In this document: one piece after another, positions 20,652 to 54,668 of the stretch
Position numbering within the stretch: the stretch's first letter is position 1
Layout: each line of letters opens with the position of its first letter
The notes under the pieces: model-generated
Seen by the model: the letters and a program-made list of their open reading frames with translations, nothing else
Databases searched by the model: none
What the model was told of the DNA's origin: nothing
Assembly (NCBI GenBank): GCA_947632595.1
Contig: CANRPY010000004.1
Span: 775 to 64,774, forward strand
Direction: 5' to 3'
Length of the DNA: 64,000 bases
From: an uncultured Bacilli bacterium
GTDB lineage: Bacteria > Bacillota_I > Bacilli_A > RF39 > UBA660
Made by a program: the position numbers and the translations under genes

Positions 20652-20850
20652 ATATTTTGTGATGAGAAAGAAGTAGTAGTAAAAAAAACTTTGTAGAGAG
20701 TCTATGGTTGGTGAAAATAGATAGGAGATTTTTATGAACTTGTCTTTTGAGCAATTGGGTAATTCCGTTATCGATTTAGAGAGTATAGTCATAACTATAA
20801 ATTAAGGTGGTACCGCGAGAAATCGTCCTTAACTTTATAGTTATTTTTTT
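20652..20850 (+). promoter_or_regulatory. T-box leader (leucine specifier CUU)
   Basis: An extended -10 promoter (TGTTATAAT) lies at 20637-20645. Stem I elements are present (UGAUGAG...AGUAGU and AGAGAG...GGUUGGUG). The specifier-loop GAA-CUU-G places the codon at 20739-20741. The T-box sequence AATTAAGGTGGTACCGCG is at 20800-20817. The terminator hairpin spans 20791-20843 and is followed by T7. Confidence 0.85.
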
Positions 20851-34297: not shown

Positions 34298-34503
34298 AAC
34301 ATTTTTTGTTGATTCATAATTAGTAGTATTCCTATTTGTTTTAGAGACTTAATGGTTGGTGGAAATTAAGAGTGATAGGAAATATGAAATACAGTATGAG
34401 GAGAAAAATCGTTTGCTGCGTTAAAGCATTGAGAGCATGTTTTACATGAATTAAGGTGGTACCGCGAAAAATTCGTCCTTAGAGAGAGTTTTTCGTTTTT
34501 TTT
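34298..34503 (+). promoter_or_regulatory. T-box leader (tyrosine specifier UAC)
   Basis: The promoter TTGACT-17-TATATT lies at 34263-34291. Stem I carries AGAGA...GGUUGGUGGAAA. The specifier GAAA-UAC-AG places the codon at 34390-34392. The T-box AATTAAGGTGGTACCGCG is at 34449-34466. The terminator is CGAAAAA...TTTTTCG followed by T8. Confidence 0.85.
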
Positions 34504-47399: not shown

Positions 47400-47990
47400 A
47401 TGGTAATTAAGGAAGCTAGTCTAGATATTATTGCGACTCGTAGAAGTCAATATCCAGATGATGGGAAACCTGAGTTTTTACTCGTAGGAAGAAGTAATGT
47501 AGGGAAAAGTAGTTTTATTAATTCTATCTTATCTCGTAATAATTTAGCGTATACTTCTTCTAAACCAGGGAAAACGCAGACTCTCAATTTTTATGAAGTG
47601 AATGATACTTTTTACTTAATTGATGCTCCTGGATATGGGTATGCTAGTACCGATAAGAAAACACAAACAAAGTTTGGTATGATGATTGAGGAGTATCTTG
47701 AGAAGAGAGCTGAATTAAAAAGAGTCTTTTTATTGGTAGATTTTCGAATGACACCAACAGAAGATGATTTATTAATGTATAACTTTTTAAAATATTATAA
47801 TCTTCCTGTTACTGTGATTGCGACAAAGGCTGATAAAGTAGGGGGAAGTAAAAAAGAAAAAAGTCTAAAAGATGTTCTTCGTACGATGGATCTTGCGATG
47901 GGGGATGACTTAGTTGTCTTTTCTAGTGTTACCAAGTTAGGAGTAAAAGAGGTTTTACAAAAAATAGAAGATATTTTGAATGAAAAATAG
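47400..47990 (+). CDS. engB: ribosome biogenesis GTPase YsxC/EngB
   Basis: G1 is GRSNVGKSSFIN, G3 is DAPGYG and G4 is TKADK. Confidence 0.9.
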   Translation: MVIKEASLDIIATRRSQYPDDGKPEFLLVGRSNVGKSSFINSILSRNNLAYTSSKPGKTQTLNFYEVNDTFYLIDAPGYGYASTDKKTQTKFGMMIEEYLEKRAELKRVFLLVDFRMTPTEDDLLMYNFLKYYNLPVTVIATKADKVGGSKKEKSLKDVLRTMDLAMGDDLVVFSSVTKLGVKEVLQKIEDILNEK

Positions 47991-47999
47991 TCTTTAGAG

Positions 48000-48719
48000 G
48001 TGAATATCTTGGATTCGAGAAAGAAGTTTTTTATTACATTTTGTTTTATTTTGTTAAATGCCTTTTTAATTGTTGGGTTTTTAGTGATTCGTGATGCGAC
48101 TTCTCTTAATCAATTAAAGAAAGAGATGAATGAATTAACAAAGTTAAATGTTACAACCGATCGTTTCAATCGAAAAATTAAAACAACTGGTGGGTATGCA
48201 GCAGTTGAGATATCTATTAAAGAGTATTTAGATGGGTATGCAGTTGGAGTACAGGATATTAATTCTTTGGTTCATGATCCGCAACTTTCTAAAATCTTAT
48301 CCTATGAGAATTATTTAGAAGATGGACCTGACTTTAAGAATTCTATTGCTTATTTGGAAGAGGCAAAAGAAACATTTAATACAGAAATTGATCAATTATT
48401 AGAAGATTTAGAAGAAGATCATATTATGGAACATATTCATACGAGAACGAATGATACTTATTATGTTTCTTTGTATGAACAACTTATGTTAGACGGAGAA
48501 ATTAATGATGAATTGTATCAGTCTAAAGATCTATTTTCTAAGACCAAGGTTCAGGTAAATTCTATTTATGATACGAGTTTAGCAATTCTCAATTTTTTAA
48601 TTGCTTATGATGGATCTTGGAAATTAGAAGATGGACAGATTAAGTTTGCAAATGATGAATTGTGTCAGTATTATAATAGTTTAATCGCAAAAGTAGAGAC
48701 AAAAAAAGGTGATTCTTAA
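48000..48719 (+). CDS. membrane-anchored protein, unknown function
   Basis: It has an N-terminal TM (FFITFCFILLNAFLIVGFLVI). The start codon is uncertain (GTG 48000 or TTG 48009). Confidence 0.45.
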   Translation: MNILDSRKKFFITFCFILLNAFLIVGFLVIRDATSLNQLKKEMNELTKLNVTTDRFNRKIKTTGGYAAVEISIKEYLDGYAVGVQDINSLVHDPQLSKILSYENYLEDGPDFKNSIAYLEEAKETFNTEIDQLLEDLEEDHIMEHIHTRTNDTYYVSLYEQLMLDGEINDELYQSKDLFSKTKVQVNSIYDTSLAILNFLIAYDGSWKLEDGQIKFANDELCQYYNSLIAKVETKKGDS

Positions 48720-48727
48720 TCACCTTT

Positions 48728-50200
48728 TTATATTACAATTGTAATAATATTATTGGAACCTTTATTAATGACTCTTGTTAGTGTGTTTTGTAGTTTAAAA
48801 CGTATATTTTCGGGCATGAGATTAATCTTTGATTGAATTCCTTCTTGGACGATAGAGTCTAGACTTCTACCAAAGATTTCACTCTTCCAGATTTCTGTTT
48901 TATTCTCTTTATCTTTTGTTAAATAGTCGATTAGTTCTTTACTTTGAAGTTCACTACCGATAATTGGTTCGAAGGTAGATTCTACATCGACTCTTATCAT
49001 ATGAATGGATGGAGCAACGGCTTTTAATTTGATTCCATATCTTGGTCCTTGTTTGATGATTTCTGGTTTTTCTAATTTCATATCTTCTATGGATGGAGTT
49101 GCAATTCCATATCCTGTTTGTTTTACCATATTTAGGGCATATTTTAGACTATCATATTCTTTTTTTGCAACATTGTATTCTTGGAATAGAGAAAGTAAGT
49201 CTGCTTTTGTTTTGATATCTTTTTGGATAAGATCCTGTAGAACTTCATTATATAACGTATTTGGTGCCGTTAAATTGATTGTAATAATTCCTGTTGAAGT
49301 ATCGACATCCGATAGATAACAATTTTCTATATATTCATTTTCTTTAAAGGCTTCTGTTATTTTTTCTACATCTCTTATTTTATCAATTTCTATGACACTG
49401 TTTTTAATGGCTTCTATATAAGAAGTTTTTATTTTATGATCTGGGTTTAATATCGCAATCCATTCTGGCATATTGACTCTTACTTCTAATACCGGAAATT
49501 CGTATAAGGCTTCTCTTAAAATATGATACATATCTTGTTCTGTCATTGATTCAATACTAATAGGTAGGACTGGCACTTTATAGCTTTCTTCGATTTCTTC
49601 TTTTATTTTCTCGGTTTCTGGAAGACTAGGATGAGTAGAATTTAAGATGACAATAAAAGGTTTTCCTAACGTCTTTAATTCTTCAATGACTCTTTTTTCT
49701 GCTTCTACATAATCTTTTCGTTGAAATTCTCCAATGGATGAGTCTGTCGTTACGACAATGCCAATTGTTGAATGTTCTTTGATTACTTTTTCTGTTCCAA
49801 TCTCTGCGGCTTCTGTAAATGGGATTTCTTCGTTGTACCAAGGAGTTTTTACCATTCTTGGTCCATTCTCATCTGTTGCGCCAATTGCATTTTCTATCAT
49901 GTAACCTACGCAATCAATTAATTTAATATTACAGGTGAAGTCATCAATTTTTATTTTTGCGGGAGAGTTTGGAATAAACTTTGGTTCTGTTGTCATAATG
50001 GTTTTTCCAGACGCACTCTGAGGAATCTCATCTAATGTTCTTTTCTTCTCAAATTCATCTTCCATATTGGGTACAATTAGAGTTTCTACCATTTTCTTAA
50101 TAAAGGTAGATTTTCCTGTTCGAACAGCACCTACTACGCCTAAATAAATATCTCCGCCACTACGTTGGGCAATGTTTTTGATTATATCTTTTTTATCCAT
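48728..50200 (-). CDS. spoIVA: stage IV sporulation protein A (spore coat morphogenetic ATPase)
   Basis: It carries the Walker A motif GVVGAVRTGKSTFIKK and resembles SpoIVA over its full ~490 aa. Confidence 0.95.
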   Translation of the reverse strand: MDKKDIIKNIAQRSGGDIYLGVVGAVRTGKSTFIKKMVETLIVPNMEDEFEKKRTLDEIPQSASGKTIMTTEPKFIPNSPAKIKIDDFTCNIKLIDCVGYMIENAIGATDENGPRMVKTPWYNEEIPFTEAAEIGTEKVIKEHSTIGIVVTTDSSIGEFQRKDYVEAEKRVIEELKTLGKPFIVILNSTHPSLPETEKIKEEIEESYKVPVLPISIESMTEQDMYHILREALYEFPVLEVRVNMPEWIAILNPDHKIKTSYIEAIKNSVIEIDKIRDVEKITEAFKENEYIENCYLSDVDTSTGIITINLTAPNTLYNEVLQDLIQKDIKTKADLLSLFQEYNVAKKEYDSLKYALNMVKQTGYGIATPSIEDMKLEKPEIIKQGPRYGIKLKAVAPSIHMIRVDVESTFEPIIGSELQSKELIDYLTKDKENKTEIWKSEIFGRSLDSIVQEGIQSKINLMPENIRFKLQNTLTRVINKGSNNIITIVI

Positions 50201-50261: not shown

Positions 50262-51263
50262 TTATTCTATCGTATTTAAGATATAGTTCTCATTAAAGGA
50301 ACAAATATTCTTTTTTGAATTTCTGCTTTCAAATGAGAATTCATAGAGAATATCATTTTTAATCATTGTGTAGATATTTAAGTGATATAGAGAACTAGAA
50401 GAGTAATGTTTTGTCCACTCTAATGTTCCTATTTTTACTTGTTCTTGTTTATATTCTTTATAGGAATCATGGAATGTATTCATTTCTTTATTATATTCTT
50501 CTTCTGTGATGTAGGAGTGGGAAGTACTTACTTTGATATAACAAATTCCTTCTTCGTGAGTATGATCTACATAGAATTGGTAGTTATCAAAATCTGTTTT
50601 TTCTGTTAAATAGGTTGGAATTTTATAGGATAATTCTTCAATTTGTTTTTGATAGGTTTTCTCTTCTTCTTTGATTTCTTCTGTGTCGTTTTGCTTGATG
50701 AGTAGGGCAATTAATCCTACATAAATGACTAGAATAACTCCTATCCATCTTACTTTTAATGGGTTTCCTTTTTTCTTACATAACTCTATTTTTTCCTCTT
50801 CTTCTTTGGTTGGATTATTTTTCTCTATTTGTTCTATTTTTCTTTCTACAATAGAGGGATAGATTTTCGGAAAGATTAGAGCAAGAAGAAATTGAAAGGC
50901 AACTCGGATTAAGATTCCAGCGCTTTCTGGTATATAGAGATAACTATAGATATAGAGAATTAAAATAAAGATTCCAAAGAACCATAGTTTACGATATAGG
51001 AAATAAAAAGGACCAAACAAAAAGGTTGGAATTGAGATAATTTCTTTTTGAATGGTCTTTTTGCTTTCTCCAAGATAGGCATTTTTATAAGTGCTTTTAT
51101 TCACTTTCTTTTTTGGAGTTTTACTTTCTTCCTTATTGTTTGTCTCTTCCTTTGGTGGTTCTTCTAATTCTAATATTTCAATTTCTTCTGTTTGTTCTTT
51201 TGGATTAGAAGAGGGATTTGTGAATTCGAACTTATTCCAATTGTTTTGAGACTTTGGATCCAT
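50262..51263 (-). CDS. membrane protein with DUF2628-like TM region and a C-terminal soluble domain, unknown function
   Basis: The acidic N-terminus is followed by IPTFLFGPFYFLYRKLWFFGIFILILY (DUF2628-like), a third TM and a ~130-aa C-terminal domain. Confidence 0.5.
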   Translation of the reverse strand: MDPKSQNNWNKFEFTNPSSNPKEQTEEIEILELEEPPKEETNNKEESKTPKKKVNKSTYKNAYLGESKKTIQKEIISIPTFLFGPFYFLYRKLWFFGIFILILYIYSYLYIPESAGILIRVAFQFLLALIFPKIYPSIVERKIEQIEKNNPTKEEEEKIELCKKKGNPLKVRWIGVILVIYVGLIALLIKQNDTEEIKEEEKTYQKQIEELSYKIPTYLTEKTDFDNYQFYVDHTHEEGICYIKVSTSHSYITEEEYNKEMNTFHDSYKEYKQEQVKIGTLEWTKHYSSSSLYHLNIYTMIKNDILYEFSFESRNSKKNICSFNENYILNTIE

Positions 51264-51268
51264 TCTTA

Positions 51269-52774
51269 TTATCCTCTTTTGCGAACAATTTGCTTCATAA
51301 TTAAATTAATTGTAAGTTCATCCGTTCCTCTTTCTAAAATCCATTTGATATCTTCTGCGGTAATCTCTACAAAGATTTCTTTATTTACTAAGATCTTATG
51401 TGGCTCTTCTAAATAGAAACCTAAATCTTCAATTGTTTTTTGACTAACAAATAAGCGTCCATTATGATTGCATATGATTACATTATATTCTTTTGTTTCT
51501 CTTGGGTAGATGCTTGCGACAATAAAGTCTTCTTTGATTCCTGTTAATTCCGTAACGTCTACTTCATAGCATTTTCTATTTAAAACGGTTTTTGTTGTTG
51601 CTTTTGCTTCCATTAAGTTTTCTGGTACATAAAGTTTTCCCGTTCTCTTGTCTCTATAAATGATAGCCTTTTTATGTTTTATGCTTCCTGCAGAAATGTA
51701 TGGCATAATTTTACTTGTTGTATTTGGGATAGGTTGATCTGCTACAGATGGGACTGTATCAATGTATGGCATAACCTTGTCTACTACAGATGGTGCTGTA
51801 TCAATATATGGCATTACCTTATCTACTACAGAAGGAGCTGTATCAATGTATGGCATTACTTTGTCTACTACAGAAGGAGCTGTGTCAATATAAGGCATCA
51901 CTTTGTCTACTACAGAAGGAGCTGTGTCGATATATGGCATCACTTTGTCTGTTACAGAAGGAGCTGTATCAATATATGGCATTACCTTATCTGTTACAGA
52001 TGGTAGATTATCTATATAAGGCATAATCTTATCTGTTACTTTGTATGCGACTACTTCTTTTTTGATGTTTGGTTTTACTAGTTGTTCTACACCACGGTAA
52101 CCAATCTTTTCTTCTATCATTTTTAATTCTTCTTCTGTAATAGAGTAACCATTCTTTTGATTAATAATTTTAGGGGTTCCTTCTATTTTGATTCCTTTTT
52201 TGGTTAATGTGTCATAGGTATCTCTTCTTACATAGTATTTATTTGTATCATAATCATAATAATAAACAAATAGGTATTCTGCTGGTTTTACTTCGTCTGG
52301 AAGAGAAGTTTCGATACATTTTCTTTTTAGACGAATCTTTTCGTTTTTACTAATCTCTTCAATTTTTTCGATGTCTTCTTCTAAAACATTTCCATAGGTT
52401 ACCATATTTAGTGTTCTTTTTGATTGAGGGATAATATTGTATTTTTTGCATAGAGAATCCAAAATATAGTATTTGTTATTATGGTTTGTATCTACATATA
52501 CTGTGAAGGATAAGATTAATTGTAAATCAAAGATTGTGACAATATTTGGAATTAGTCTTGTTCCTTCTTCTTGTGCTTTCTTTTCCATCTCTGCTAGTTC
52601 TAAGTCTTCTACTTTATAGCATGGTTCTTCCTTGATTGTCTTTTCTTCTTCTTTGTTTCCGATTTGGTATTTGCTCGCTAGAACATGTGAAATGTATAGA
52701 CCACTAGCTGTTTTATAGATATTATAGATTTTTTCTTCCATCTTTTTTTCATCCCTTTTTAATTCTTCGTTCAT
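51269..52774 (-). CDS. repeat protein: five degenerate ~50-aa modules interrupted by a 7x14-aa DKVMPYIDTAPSV array, unknown function
   Basis: It is a 501-aa ORF with an AGGGAG RBS and no signal peptide or TM. See the repeat feature and findings. Confidence 0.6.
   Translation of the reverse strand: MNEELKRDEKKMEEKIYNIYKTASGLYISHVLASKYQIGNKEEEKTIKEEPCYKVEDLELAEMEKKAQEEGTRLIPNIVTIFDLQLILSFTVYVDTNHNNKYYILDSLCKKYNIIPQSKRTLNMVTYGNVLEEDIEKIEEISKNEKIRLKRKCIETSLPDEVKPAEYLFVYYYDYDTNKYYVRRDTYDTLTKKGIKIEGTPKIINQKNGYSITEEELKMIEEKIGYRGVEQLVKPNIKKEVVAYKVTDKIMPYIDNLPSVTDKVMPYIDTAPSVTDKVMPYIDTAPSVVDKVMPYIDTAPSVVDKVMPYIDTAPSVVDKVMPYIDTAPSVVDKVMPYIDTVPSVADQPIPNTTSKIMPYISAGSIKHKKAIIYRDKRTGKLYVPENLMEAKATTKTVLNRKCYEVDVTELTGIKEDFIVASIYPRETKEYNVIICNHNGRLFVSQKTIEDLGFYLEEPHKILVNKEIFVEITAEDIKWILERGTDELTINLIMKQIVRKRG
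51744..52037 (-). repeat. seven contiguous in-frame 42-nt tandem repeats encoding [TV]DK[VI]MPYID[TN][AVL]PSV
   Basis: Unit boundaries on the + strand are 51744, 51786, 51828, 51870, 51912, 51954 and 51996, each starting ACAGA[AT]GG. A degenerate eighth copy (SKIMPYISAGS) lies at ~51690-51720. Confidence 0.95.
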
Positions 52775-52804
52775 TTTCTACACTCCCTACTATAGATTAT
52801 TATA

Positions 52805-52834
52805 TAATAAAAAAGACTAAATAAATAGTCTTTT
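52805..52834 (-). terminator. rho-independent terminator after the spoVIF-like gene
   Basis: Hairpin AAAAGACTA-loop-TAGTCTTTT with a T-run on the minus strand. Confidence 0.7.
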
Positions 52835-53071
52835 TTAAAACATTTTATCAATATTTTTTGGAACTTTGTCTTTTAAGATTGTCGATATAATTTTCTCTTC
52901 TTTTTCTTTTGAGACTTCTTTTCCTGTGATTTTACTAAGCTCTTGTATGATTTCGCGAATTGTTTTCTCATCTTTTAGGTTGTTTTGTTGTAGTTTGGAA
53001 GCTAAGGAGAGGATTGTTTCTTTTTTGACATTTGTTTTTTGTTCTATCTTTTGGAATAAGTTATCTTTCAA
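52835..53071 (-). CDS. SpoVIF-like (stage VI sporulation protein F family) small protein
   Basis: MKDNLFQKIEQKTNVKKETILSLASKLQQNNLKDEKTIREIIQELSKITGKEVSKEKEEKIISTI... matches the SpoVIF/YjcC pattern as I recall it (F-x-K-x-E-x-KT-x-V...LA-x-x-LQ...KDE-x-T-[IV]-R). Confidence 0.55.
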   Translation of the reverse strand: MKDNLFQKIEQKTNVKKETILSLASKLQQNNLKDEKTIREIIQELSKITGKEVSKEKEEKIISTILKDKVPKNIDKMF

Positions 53072-53109
53072 AATAAAACCTCCTATATATTATATGTGGA
53101 GGTTTTTCT

Positions 53110-53361
53110 TTATTTTCTTTTTCCTAATTGTTCACATAATTTATTGAAGTCTTCCATACTGATGAGACCTTTTTGTAGGCGGTCTTCTAACATAGCAAAT
53201 GCTTTATCATTCATTTCTTTTTTACTGGTAACATCTGTATGTTGCATGGTGCGGGATTGTTCTAAGATGGTTCTTTTTTCTTCTTTTAGAGGAAGAGGGG
53301 AAGTCTGTTCTTTTAAAAAGGGATTTTTTCCTCCTAGATTTGTGTTTTTTCCAATAATCAT
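53110..53361 (-). CDS. small protein translationally coupled to der, with a SHOCT-like C-terminal helix, unknown function
   Basis: Its start overlaps the der stop by 4 nt (ATGA). The C-terminus is AFAMLEDRLQKGLISMEDFNKLCEQLGKRK. Confidence 0.45.
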   Translation of the reverse strand: MIIGKNTNLGGKNPFLKEQTSPLPLKEEKRTILEQSRTMQHTDVTSKKEMNDKAFAMLEDRLQKGLISMEDFNKLCEQLGKRK

Positions 53362-54668
53362 TCTTCGTCTCCATTTCTATTCTTAAATTGTAAGGTAATC
53401 GGAGTTCCTTCAAAATCAAAGTTTTCTCTAATCTTATTTTCTAGATATCTTTCATAAGAAAAATGAACTAGTCCTTTGTTGTTAACACGGAATGTAAATT
53501 TAGGAGGTTTTACTCCTGTTTGAGAAGTAAAGTAAATTTTTAATCTTTTTCCTTTATAAGTAGGAGGTAGATTTAATTGGTAAGAATCTTGAATGACTTC
53601 GTTTAAGACACTTGTTTTTACTTCTCTTTTGATATTTTCTTTTACTTTTACAATTTCAGGCATTAGGGTATGAATTCTTTTCTTTGTTAAAGCACTTAAG
53701 AATACGATTGGTGCATAGGGGGCAAATTGGAATTCTGCTCGCATTTCTTTTTCGAATTCTTGAATGGTTTTTTCTTTTACGGTATCCCATTTATTAACTA
53801 CAAAGATAAGTCCTTTTCCTCTTTCAATGGCATATCCTGCGATATGTTTATCATGTTCTAGGATTCCTTCTTCTGCATTGATGACTACTAAACAAATATC
53901 TGATCGATCAATGGATTTTAGAGAACGGAATAAGCTATATTTTTCAATACTTTCAAAGACTCTTCCTTTTTTTCTCATTCCGGCGGTATCAATTACTACA
54001 AATTCTTCGTCTTGATATTTCAAGATACAATCAATGGAGTCTCTTGTTGTTCCTGCAATATTGGATACTACGACTCTTTCTTCTTGTAGAAGGGCATTTG
54101 TTAGAGAACTTTTTCCTACATTTGGTCTACCGATAATTGAGAATTTTACTCTCGTATCTTCTTGTTCTTCTGTTTCTTTAAAATTCATGGTAACGGCATC
54201 CATTAATTCAATATAGCCGGTATTATGAATTCCACTTATTGGAATATAAGTATCAAAACCTAATTCATAGAAATCATATAGATTATCTTGAGCATCTTTT
54301 ACATCTATCTTGTTGATTGCTACAATTACTTTTTTATTTGTTTTTCTTAAGATTTCTTTTATGATATTATCATTGGATGTTAATCCTTCTTTTCCGTCTA
54401 CAACAAAGACAACGACATCTGCTTCTTCGATTGCGATTTCTGCTTGCATTTTAATTTCTGTGTTAAAATCCATTTTTGTGGCATCAATTCCACCTGTATC
54501 AATTAAATAAAATCTTTTGTTTTTGTAGGATGCTTCTTGATAGATACGATCTCTTGTTACGCCAGGTACATCTTCTATAATAGAAATTTGTTTTCCTACA
54601 ATTTTATTAAATAAAGTAGATTTCCCTACATTTGGTCTACCTACTAGGGCAACCGTTGGTAATTTCAT
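53358..54668 (-). CDS. der: ribosome biogenesis GTPase Der (EngA)
   Basis: It has two tandem GTPase domains (GRPNVGKSTLFN and GRPNVGKSSLTN) plus a KH-like C-terminus. Confidence 0.95.
   Translation of the reverse strand: MKLPTVALVGRPNVGKSTLFNKIVGKQISIIEDVPGVTRDRIYQEASYKNKRFYLIDTGGIDATKMDFNTEIKMQAEIAIEEADVVVFVVDGKEGLTSNDNIIKEILRKTNKKVIVAINKIDVKDAQDNLYDFYELGFDTYIPISGIHNTGYIELMDAVTMNFKETEEQEDTRVKFSIIGRPNVGKSSLTNALLQEERVVVSNIAGTTRDSIDCILKYQDEEFVVIDTAGMRKKGRVFESIEKYSLFRSLKSIDRSDICLVVINAEEGILEHDKHIAGYAIERGKGLIFVVNKWDTVKEKTIQEFEKEMRAEFQFAPYAPIVFLSALTKKRIHTLMPEIVKVKENIKREVKTSVLNEVIQDSYQLNLPPTYKGKRLKIYFTSQTGVKPPKFTFRVNNKGLVHFSYERYLENKIRENFDFEGTPITLQFKNRNGDEE

Follow-up and report, generated by a model that had tools for sequence, protein, structure and literature searches.

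A copy-number-variable array of a candidate short linear motif in the linker of an undescribed modular protein of uncultured Bacilli

What might a protein gain from carrying the same 14-residue peptide seven times in a row? This question is raised by a locus of an uncultured Bacilli bacterium (assembly GCA_947632595.1, contig CANRPY010000004.1), of which a stretch of 64,000 nucleotides—hereafter the window—was analyzed. An open reading frame (ORF) of 501 amino acids (aa) on its minus strand, here called REP, encodes seven head-to-tail copies of a 42-nucleotide (nt) unit. A preliminary description of the locus, made from the letters alone, had considered these copies a conserved peptide and possibly a multivalent short linear motif, that is, a docking array for a partner protein; a structural or cross-linking element and—more remotely—a tandem-core precursor were its alternatives. 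Here, we describe the selection acting on the unit, its recurrence in related proteins, and its variation in copy number. The reading that we favor, with a probability of roughly one half, is a multivalent array of a single short linear motif in a flexible tether, its valency altered by unequal recombination.

The array and the protein that carries it

The array and its immediate surroundings comprise the following features.

51269..52774, minus strand: the REP ORF of 501 aa, which carries the array (translation; homologues with conserved flanking domains)
51743..52036, minus strand: seven head-to-tail 42-nt units encoding [TV]DK[VI]MPYID[TN][AVL]PSV (Tandem Repeats Finder, translation)
51716..51742, minus strand: nine-residue spacer ADQPIPNTT (translation)
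51683..51715, minus strand: degenerate eighth copy SKIMPYISAGS (translation; a PY motif of relatives at the equivalent place)

Tandem Repeats Finder reports the repeat at 51738..52024 with a period of 42, 6.8 copies, 87% matches, 0 indels, and a score of 362. In translation, all seven 14-aa units are in frame and correspond to aa 247–344 of REP. This confirms the seven-fold in-frame minus-strand repeat of the preliminary description as well as the spacer and the degenerate copy behind it. Its coordinates require two trivial corrections: the unit starts were given 1 nt off the codon boundaries (51744 for 51743), and the start of the whole element at 51690 clips the eighth copy. The peptide TDKIMPYIDNLPSV occurs once, TDKVMPYIDTAPSV twice, VDKVMPYIDTAPSV three times, and VDKVMPYIDTVPSV once, and every unit holds two prolines, one lysine, one serine, and no arginine. 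The degenerate eighth copy ends 5–6 residues ahead of the first strand of the C-terminal region. Translation would start from an ATG with an AGGGAG ribosome-binding site 8–9 nt ahead of it. Neither a signal peptide nor a membrane segment was apparent on inspection of the translation, for which no dedicated predictor was used, and a six-frame scan of the window for the motif matches the REP ORF only.

REP is not an isolated sequence. A first homology search found 19 relatives, and an exhaustive profile search extended these to 111 cluster representatives at E ≤1e-3, of which 44 reach E ≤1e-30. None of the 111 bears an informative name, and the named sources are metagenome-assembled genomes (MAGs) labeled "Bacilli bacterium" from rumen, ileum, and similar samples. 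The full-length members have an N-terminal part of ~230 aa and a C-terminal part of ~130 aa in common, separated by a segment that cannot be aligned. Across orthologues, the total linker length ranges from ~50 to ~600 residues. For the window protein, AlphaFold2 (AF2) and the family alignment divide the chain as follows, where pLDDT is the per-residue confidence of the prediction.

52076..52741, minus strand: N-terminal folded region, aa 12–233, with three bb-a-bb-a-b modules (b, β-strand; a, α-helix; AF2 pLDDT 70–89; hhalign)
51671..52072, minus strand: central linker, aa 235–368, left unfolded by AF2 and unalignable between orthologues (AF2; family alignment)
51284..51670, minus strand: C-terminal folded region, aa 369–497, with two more modules of the same kind (AF2 pLDDT 73–92 in a short construct; hhalign)

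The comparison of modules by hhalign gives probabilities of 85–97% for the pairs M1–M2, M1–M3, M2–M5, and M3–M4, which shows that the five modules of the flanks are homologous to one another. The linker, on the other hand, is predicted as unfolded: pLDDT values in the full-length model are ~27–39, about 33 over aa 235–368, against 70–92 in the flanks. A construct of aa 331–501—running from unit 7 over the degenerate copy to the C-terminal region—gives ~35 for the linker. In both settings, AF2 leaves the array unfolded.

For the folded regions themselves, no described counterpart was found. Queries with the flanks, as sequences and as profiles, produced no credible match in Pfam, NCBIfam, PDB sequences, PHROGs, or PADLOC. 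Fold searches of the full-length and C-terminal models against the PDB found no match with E <0.1 (best E 0.1), and a fold search against viral models gave weak matches to small unnamed phage proteins (best E = 6e-3). Larger family members, such as P0047, show DUF4116 or nothing. An origin in a mobile element was considered and rejected, as tblastn of REP against phage and plasmid collections returned no match.

Selection on the repeat unit

Units that encode the same peptide do so in different DNA. Up to seven synonymous differences separate units of identical peptide, and the synonymous alternations comprise GTA/GTG/GTT, CCA/CCT, TAC/TAT, GAT/GAC, AAA/AAG, and ATA/ATC/ATT. Every alternation that the preliminary description listed is among these; AAA/AAG and ATA/ATC/ATT come in addition. 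Third codon positions vary at 10 of the 14 codons of the window unit, first and second positions at three each. At least 11 synonymous and 5 non-synonymous events are required to relate the units, compared with an expectation of ~24% synonymous (binomial P ~2e-4).

The mean pairwise proportion of synonymous differences (pS) among the seven units is 0.53, that of non-synonymous differences (pN) 0.08; for units 2–7 only, the values are 0.47 and 0.04. For the window array, pN/pS thereby amounts to ~0.1–0.16. This synonymous excess means that the unit peptide is kept by purifying selection, even though the units have diverged in DNA, and that the units are not fresh copies of each other. The preliminary description had argued in the same direction—for a conserved peptide and against a recent product of slippage—and had suggested this very comparison of synonymous and non-synonymous change. 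Conservation of the peptide is borne out by it; a static array is not, as a strain with four units shows (see below). In two other lineages with arrays, P0024 and P0037, the units have a pN/pS of 0.48–0.64, as expected with constraint on the core alone.

Recurrence of the motif in the family

The unit is not confined to the window protein. Four lineages share a 14–15-residue unit, [DE]xx[MI]P[YF]x[DE]x[ILVA][SP][ST][VI]x, located at the same place in the linker, and the folded regions of the other lineages with such arrays are 29–48% identical to those of the window protein.

Window: 7 x DKVMPYIDTAPSVV
P0003: 6 x EEVMPYxDxLSTVx
P0024: 21 x EEPIPYDDSISTIV
P0037: 9 x EDLIPYDDNISTVVD

Together, these are 43 units. 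All of them (43/43) contain the proline, and all (43/43) have an aromatic residue next to it—tyrosine except for phenylalanine in just two. An acidic residue, aspartate or glutamate, occupies position 1 in 43/43 and position 8 in 42/43, and positions 10–13 read [ILVA][SP][ST][VI], while positions 2, 3, 7, 9, and 14 are free. When a profile made from unit triplets is run locally in HMMER, the four lineages reach E-values of 1e-21 to 1e-123 on a scale of 5.8e9 sequences.

Shorter versions of the motif are found in further relatives. P0007, P0011, P0013, and P0021 carry a seven-residue form, VMPYxE[KR] or IPFRDR, and P0027 has one to three motif copies. In L007/P0025, a single copy (ITPYEEERVIVYKD in L007) lies just ahead of the first strand of the C-terminal region, and hence where the window protein has its degenerate eighth copy. 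This shared position of the PY motif in single-copy and short-form relatives suggests that the arrays expanded from one ancestral copy directly ahead of the C-terminal region, and the degenerate eighth copy is probably this ancestral copy. Units within a lineage are more alike than units between lineages, which indicates that they undergo concerted evolution. As a side observation, P0006, P0008, and P0015 have the PY motif fused straight to an LGDDDIIK unit.

The reach of the motif beyond the family has to be read with care. A word-indexed search of 5.8 billion proteins with array-only queries gave 0 matches—not even the source proteins—and is thus uninformative on the motif outside the family. 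Since local HMMER scores the same source proteins very highly with the same profile, negatives of word-indexed searches cannot be trusted for repetitive queries of this kind. Literature searches for MPYID, IPYDD, MPYDD, and DUF2628 found nothing relevant.

Copy number variation

Comparison of copy number between strains had been suggested as a further check, with free variation or a broken frame as the outcome that would speak against the proposal. The number does vary. On the contig of L001, whose flanking genes are 99–100% identical to those of the window, four units and the degenerate copy are present, and L002 has seven units. L001 differs from the window by a clean in-frame 126-nt deletion, whose junction lies inside the shared GTAGACAAAGTG|ATGCC. 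This junction creates 31-mers absent from the seven-unit array, which makes a simple k-mer collapse an unlikely origin of the four-unit allele. Within the P0037 cluster, forms of 599, 584, and 569 aa differ by whole units; as the P0037 units are nearly identical in DNA, the 584- and 569-aa forms may be products of assembly collapse. Across the family, from 1 to about 21 copies are found. What differs between the window and L001 is whole units, in frame.

A docking array or a spacer

The units have the hallmarks of short linear motifs: they lack stable predicted structure, combine fixed with free positions, and are conserved amid a linker that is otherwise unalignable. In the mechanism that we propose, REP is a cytoplasmic modular protein whose two folded regions would be tethered by the flexible linker with its motif array, and each unit might act as an independent docking site. 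The aromatic–proline anchor and the short hydrophobic S/T-V/I-V stretch, flanked by acidic residues, would be suited to strand addition on a partner. Unequal recombination between units of an array that probably grew from one ancestral copy could then shift valency and, with it, avidity or how many copies of the partner are recruited.

Several points weigh against this proposal. In many family members, a short plain linker or unrelated repeats take the place of the motif. In P0030 (L013:6001-8976) and P0036, the linker holds some 20 copies of a ~27-residue LGD-type unit, hVKLLGDQNVDIDEIKxEL. Other repeats at this position are IMDSIVIDDDD in P0022, VIPxxFT in P0005, and helical-looking units of 30–42 residues in P0012 and P0014. 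Since orthologues do with unrelated repeats or with none, the motif is dispensable in some lineages; it is replaceable, as expected if length or general physical character outweighs sequence. Furthermore, AF2 docks no unit on the folded regions of the same chain in either the full-length or the aa 331–501 model. The input alignment for AF2 was also shallow (18 sequences), so that the apparent disorder might stem from a repeat fold that the prediction missed. The preliminary proposal of a multivalent motif is hence strengthened by the unfolded array and by the recurrence of the unit across lineages, and weakened by its dispensability.

The same observations lend themselves to a second reading, in which the repeat is a length-tunable spacer or structural element. 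The length of the tether and its extended, proline-punctuated, acidic character would matter in this case, and the unit sequence would be retained for conferring this character or a periodic extended structure, not for binding. The varied filling of the linker in orthologues with its ~50 to ~600 residues, the different copy numbers of close strains, and the two prolines per unit in the window lineage are all in its favor. A pure spacer leaves unexplained, however, why the proline, the Tyr/Phe, the Asp/Glu, and the [SP][ST][VI] triplet are invariant across lineages whose folded parts are 29–48% identical, and why pN/pS of the window array is as low as ~0.1–0.16. Nor does it account for the single PY motif that array-less relatives keep beside the C-terminal region. 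We regard this second reading as possible, if rather unlikely.

Genomic context and the sporulation neighbors

The location of REP suggests a third reading, which requires a description of the neighborhood. In the window, der is followed by an 83-aa ORF, spoVIF, REP, a gene for a DUF2628-like membrane protein, and spoIVA, an arrangement shared by L001, L003, L006, L007, and L011. Matches in Pfam and NCBIfam support the neighbors as the preliminary description had named them.

53110..53361, minus strand: 83-aa ORF, in 4-nt overlap with the der stop codon; upstream of REP in every locus with sequence there
52835..53071, minus strand: SpoVIF-like gene (Pfam PF14069, E = 8e-23); absent in L004, L005, L009/L010, and L013
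50262..51263, minus strand: gene of the DUF2628-like membrane protein, the usual downstream partner, starting 5 nt past the REP stop; absent in L005
48728..50200, minus strand: spoIVA (TIGR02836, 680 bits); absent in L004, L005, L009/L010, and L013

By eye, the C-terminal 35 residues of the 83-aa ORF (MNDKAFAMLEDRLQKGLISMEDFNKLCEQLGKRK) look SHOCT-like; Pfam gives no match for the ORF.

Identities to the window show how unevenly this neighborhood changes.

Der, related loci: 86–89%
EngB, related loci: 82–93%
SpoIVA, where present: 84–85%
REP, related loci: 29–57%
DUF2628-like membrane protein: about 30%

From this comparison of 50262..52774 of the window with 47400..50200 and 53358..54668, REP and the membrane protein are seen to evolve far more quickly than the genes around them and to form a fast pair inside a conserved housekeeping neighborhood.

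Might REP then be a spore-coat or coat-morphogenetic protein, whose repeats serve in Tyr/Lys cross-linking or in a CotG-like manner together with SpoIVA and SpoVIF? Its place between spoVIF and spoIVA in the window and the five loci of equal gene order points in this direction, and coat proteins such as CotG typically have tandem repeats at their center (PMC9765600, PMC7821199). The related loci speak against it. In L004, L005, L009/L010, and L013, der is followed by a small ORF, REP, the membrane protein (not in L005), and then directly by a 232–239-aa gene and engB; spoIVA and spoVIF are absent at the locus. Nevertheless, these close relatives, with a Der identity of 86–89%, keep an intact REP homologue. 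Motif arrays, too, occur with spoIVA and spoVIF at the locus (window, L011) and without them: the P0037 lineage of L009/L010 keeps nine units.

As REP is intact at loci without spoIVA and spoVIF, these sporulation neighbors would not be obligate partners of it, their proximity would be a coincidence, and SpoIVA and SpoVIF are unlikely partners of the motif; the partnership that the preliminary description had suggested is not upheld. Cross-linking through Tyr and Lys fares no better, since the lysine of the unit is not conserved and tyrosine is replaced by phenylalanine in some units. Pfam finds no LysM or other coat-protein domain in REP or in 17 of its homologues, and the leader upstream of REP has a TATAAT-type −10 box and, judged by eye only, no obvious σE or σK −10 box. 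On this balance, a role in the spore coat is improbable.

The presence or absence of spoIVA and spoVIF at the locus in otherwise close MAGs (Der 86–89%, EngB 82–93% identical) suggests that sporulation genes were lost recently inside this clade of uncultured Bacilli from gut and rumen, as far as a comparison at the level of the locus can tell. Proximity to spoIVA is hence an unsafe basis for calling genes sporulation-related in this clade.

One of the loci deserves a separate remark. The contig of L007 (CAZHBS010000001.1) is labeled as an uncultured Muribaculaceae MAG, yet it has spoIVA and spoVIF, and its der and engB are 83–86% identical to those of the window; it is probably mis-binned or mislabeled. 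Its REP homologue of 729 aa contains two extra internal modules and an acidic linker rich in proline and glutamate.

Scaffold, plasmid, and precursor models

Further readings have been weighed. The order bb-a-bb-a-b of the modules is the secondary-structure order of the ubiquitin-like β-grasp fold, and the sole long fold alignments to the PDB—non-significant and treated only as a lead—were to linear poly-ubiquitin and FAT10. One can imagine REP as a self-contained multivalent scaffold, whose modules would be read in trans by the hydrophobic strand motifs of the linker with their acidic flanks, forming a network at the membrane with the DUF2628-like partner. The repeat copy number, from 1 to about 21, might then tune the material properties of such a network of many modules and many motifs. 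This picture, drawn by analogy, is speculative, and we would not expect it to hold.

A link to plasmid biology is suggested by Pfam PF17383 (KleA/KleC), against which whole REP scores 35 bits at a cut-off of 25 bits. The match could reflect a functional motif common to REP and the KleA/KleC proteins of IncP plasmids, the same peptide docking on a conserved bacterial target. KleA of R751 starts with MSKNKIMPWVDALPNVE, and its N-terminal KIMPWVDALPNV has 8 of 12 residues in common with KIMPYIDNLPSV of unit 1. Unit 1 alone reaches 17 bits (E = 0.008, profile positions 2–17) and unit 2 12.8 bits, whereas R751 KleA itself matches positions 2–76 with 86 bits.

Membership of REP in PF17383 was rejected, since the match is limited to positions 2–19 of 76 and single units remain below the 25-bit cut-off. 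Homology was rejected on the same grounds, and the units of the other three lineages do not match the family. The above-threshold score of the whole protein is an artefact—a sum of repeated partial matches—and the resemblance one of motif, not of descent.

The likeness is confined to a peptide of 17–18 residues, and REP lacks the helical body of KleA. The REP locus is chromosomal, between der and engB, with no IncP kilE/KorC-type plasmid context; tblastn of the array against 72,556 plasmids found no KleA, and a search of the KleA/KleC literature found nothing on the N-terminal peptide. Membership of the motif in a characterized repeat family would have told against the preliminary proposal; a family was indeed matched, but it is itself uncharacterized and the match is not homology. 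A functional motif common to REP and KleA is very doubtful.

Least credible of all is a tandem-core precursor cleaved into many 14-residue peptides, akin to a ribosomally synthesized and post-translationally modified peptide or a pheromone: identical peptides are repeated within one ORF as it would predict, but there is no signal or leader peptide, no protease-type spacer between units, and no modifying enzyme, protease, or exporter among the neighbors, two large conserved folded regions enclose the array, and many orthologues have no units.

Comparison with known systems

An in-frame variable-number tandem repeat (VNTR) that encodes a linear motif in a disordered linker is a kind of feature already known in general. 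What is undescribed, in every library searched, is the REP family with its module, and the motif has no relevant matches in the literature. With arrays of short linear motifs, REP shares the short motif with few fixed positions, the predicted disorder, the variable valency, and the unalignable linker around it. Poly-SUMO with poly-SIM (SUMO-interacting motif) is the textbook case of such multivalency. The hydrophobic [ILV]-[SP]-[ST]-[VI]-[VI] stretch of REP, followed by acidic residues, resembles the strand-addition motif of SIMs, at least by eye, and the scaffold of many modules and many motifs envisaged above would be analogous to poly-SUMO with poly-SIM. Unlike these, REP is a bacterial cytoplasmic protein of an uncharacterized family, and docking is putative here.

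In-frame VNTRs are also known from surface proteins of Gram-positive bacteria, for example of the SD-repeat or Rib/alpha-C type. Shared features are an in-frame polymorphism of copy number, units that evolve in concert, and a gene whose evolution outpaces that of its neighbors. However, the REP units are not folded domains, and inspection of REP—whose termini are MNEELKRDEKKMEEK and ...IMKQIVRKRG—reveals no signal peptide, LPXTG motif, or wall-binding domain.

SpoVID of B. subtilis and SipL of C. difficile are coat morphogenetic proteins that bind SpoIVA, and the middle region of SpoVID is long, acidic, and partly repetitive. REP has a middle region of this description as well, and its gene, as sipL, lies close to spoIVA. 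On the contrary, neither LysM nor the SpoVID N-terminal domain, nor any other domain in common, is found by Pfam or NCBIfam in REP or the 17 homologues, and REP is kept where spoIVA is absent from the locus. CotG and CotB of Bacillus subtilis are modular tandem-repeat spore-coat proteins, whose repeats are rich in Lys, Arg, and Ser and are phosphorylated by CotH (PMC9765600, PMC7821199). A central tandem-repeat module, a gene near sporulation genes, and a variable repeat number connect REP to them. Its units, however, are acidic and hydrophobic with a Pro–Tyr core, those of other lineages being acidic and devoid of Lys, and the gene persists at loci without spoIVA and spoVIF.

To our knowledge, few short linear motifs of bacteria are well supported, and fewer still form arrays whose valency varies naturally. 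The case of REP is useful in that it combines a clean motif from four independent lineages with natural copy-number alleles, selection on the peptide, and an unannotated family in a poorly known clade. Its weakness lies in the lack of an assignable partner or phenotype and in the uncultured state of the organisms. Should a partner be found, this would give the REP family a first function, and a natural system for the tuning of valency by repeat recombination.

The upstream leader and nearby elements

While the protein changes quickly, the DNA directly ahead of its gene does so hardly at all.

52775..52835, minus strand: REP upstream leader, AAAAAAGACTA-N6-TAGTCTTTTTT (a perfect 11-bp inverted repeat), then ATTATATAATAAT..ATAGTAGGGAG (alignment and 10-locus comparison)

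This ~60-nt leader is nearly invariant in the window, L001, L003–L007, L009, and L011, where the proteins are 29–57% identical. It is kept even where the upstream gene differs, and its loop varies while the stem is constant. The inverted repeat is followed by ATTATATAATAAT and then by the ribosome-binding site, and the window contains the whole element a single time. A terminator combined with a TATAAT promoter, an operator, or an RNA element are possible identities for it. A scan with Rfam detected no known RNA family at the leader; its sole matches in the window are two T-box leaders elsewhere, on the plus strand at 20653..20833 and 34300..34483 (RF00230, 111 and 97 bits).

A second inverted repeat, AAACCTCC-N13-GGAGGTTT, is situated at 53072..53115 on the minus strand, immediately ahead of the TTG with which the SpoVIF-like gene starts. 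The ribosome-binding site lies in the 3' arm of this repeat, and TTATTTT follows. The element could serve as terminator of the 83-aa ORF or, by its structure, occlude the ribosome-binding site.

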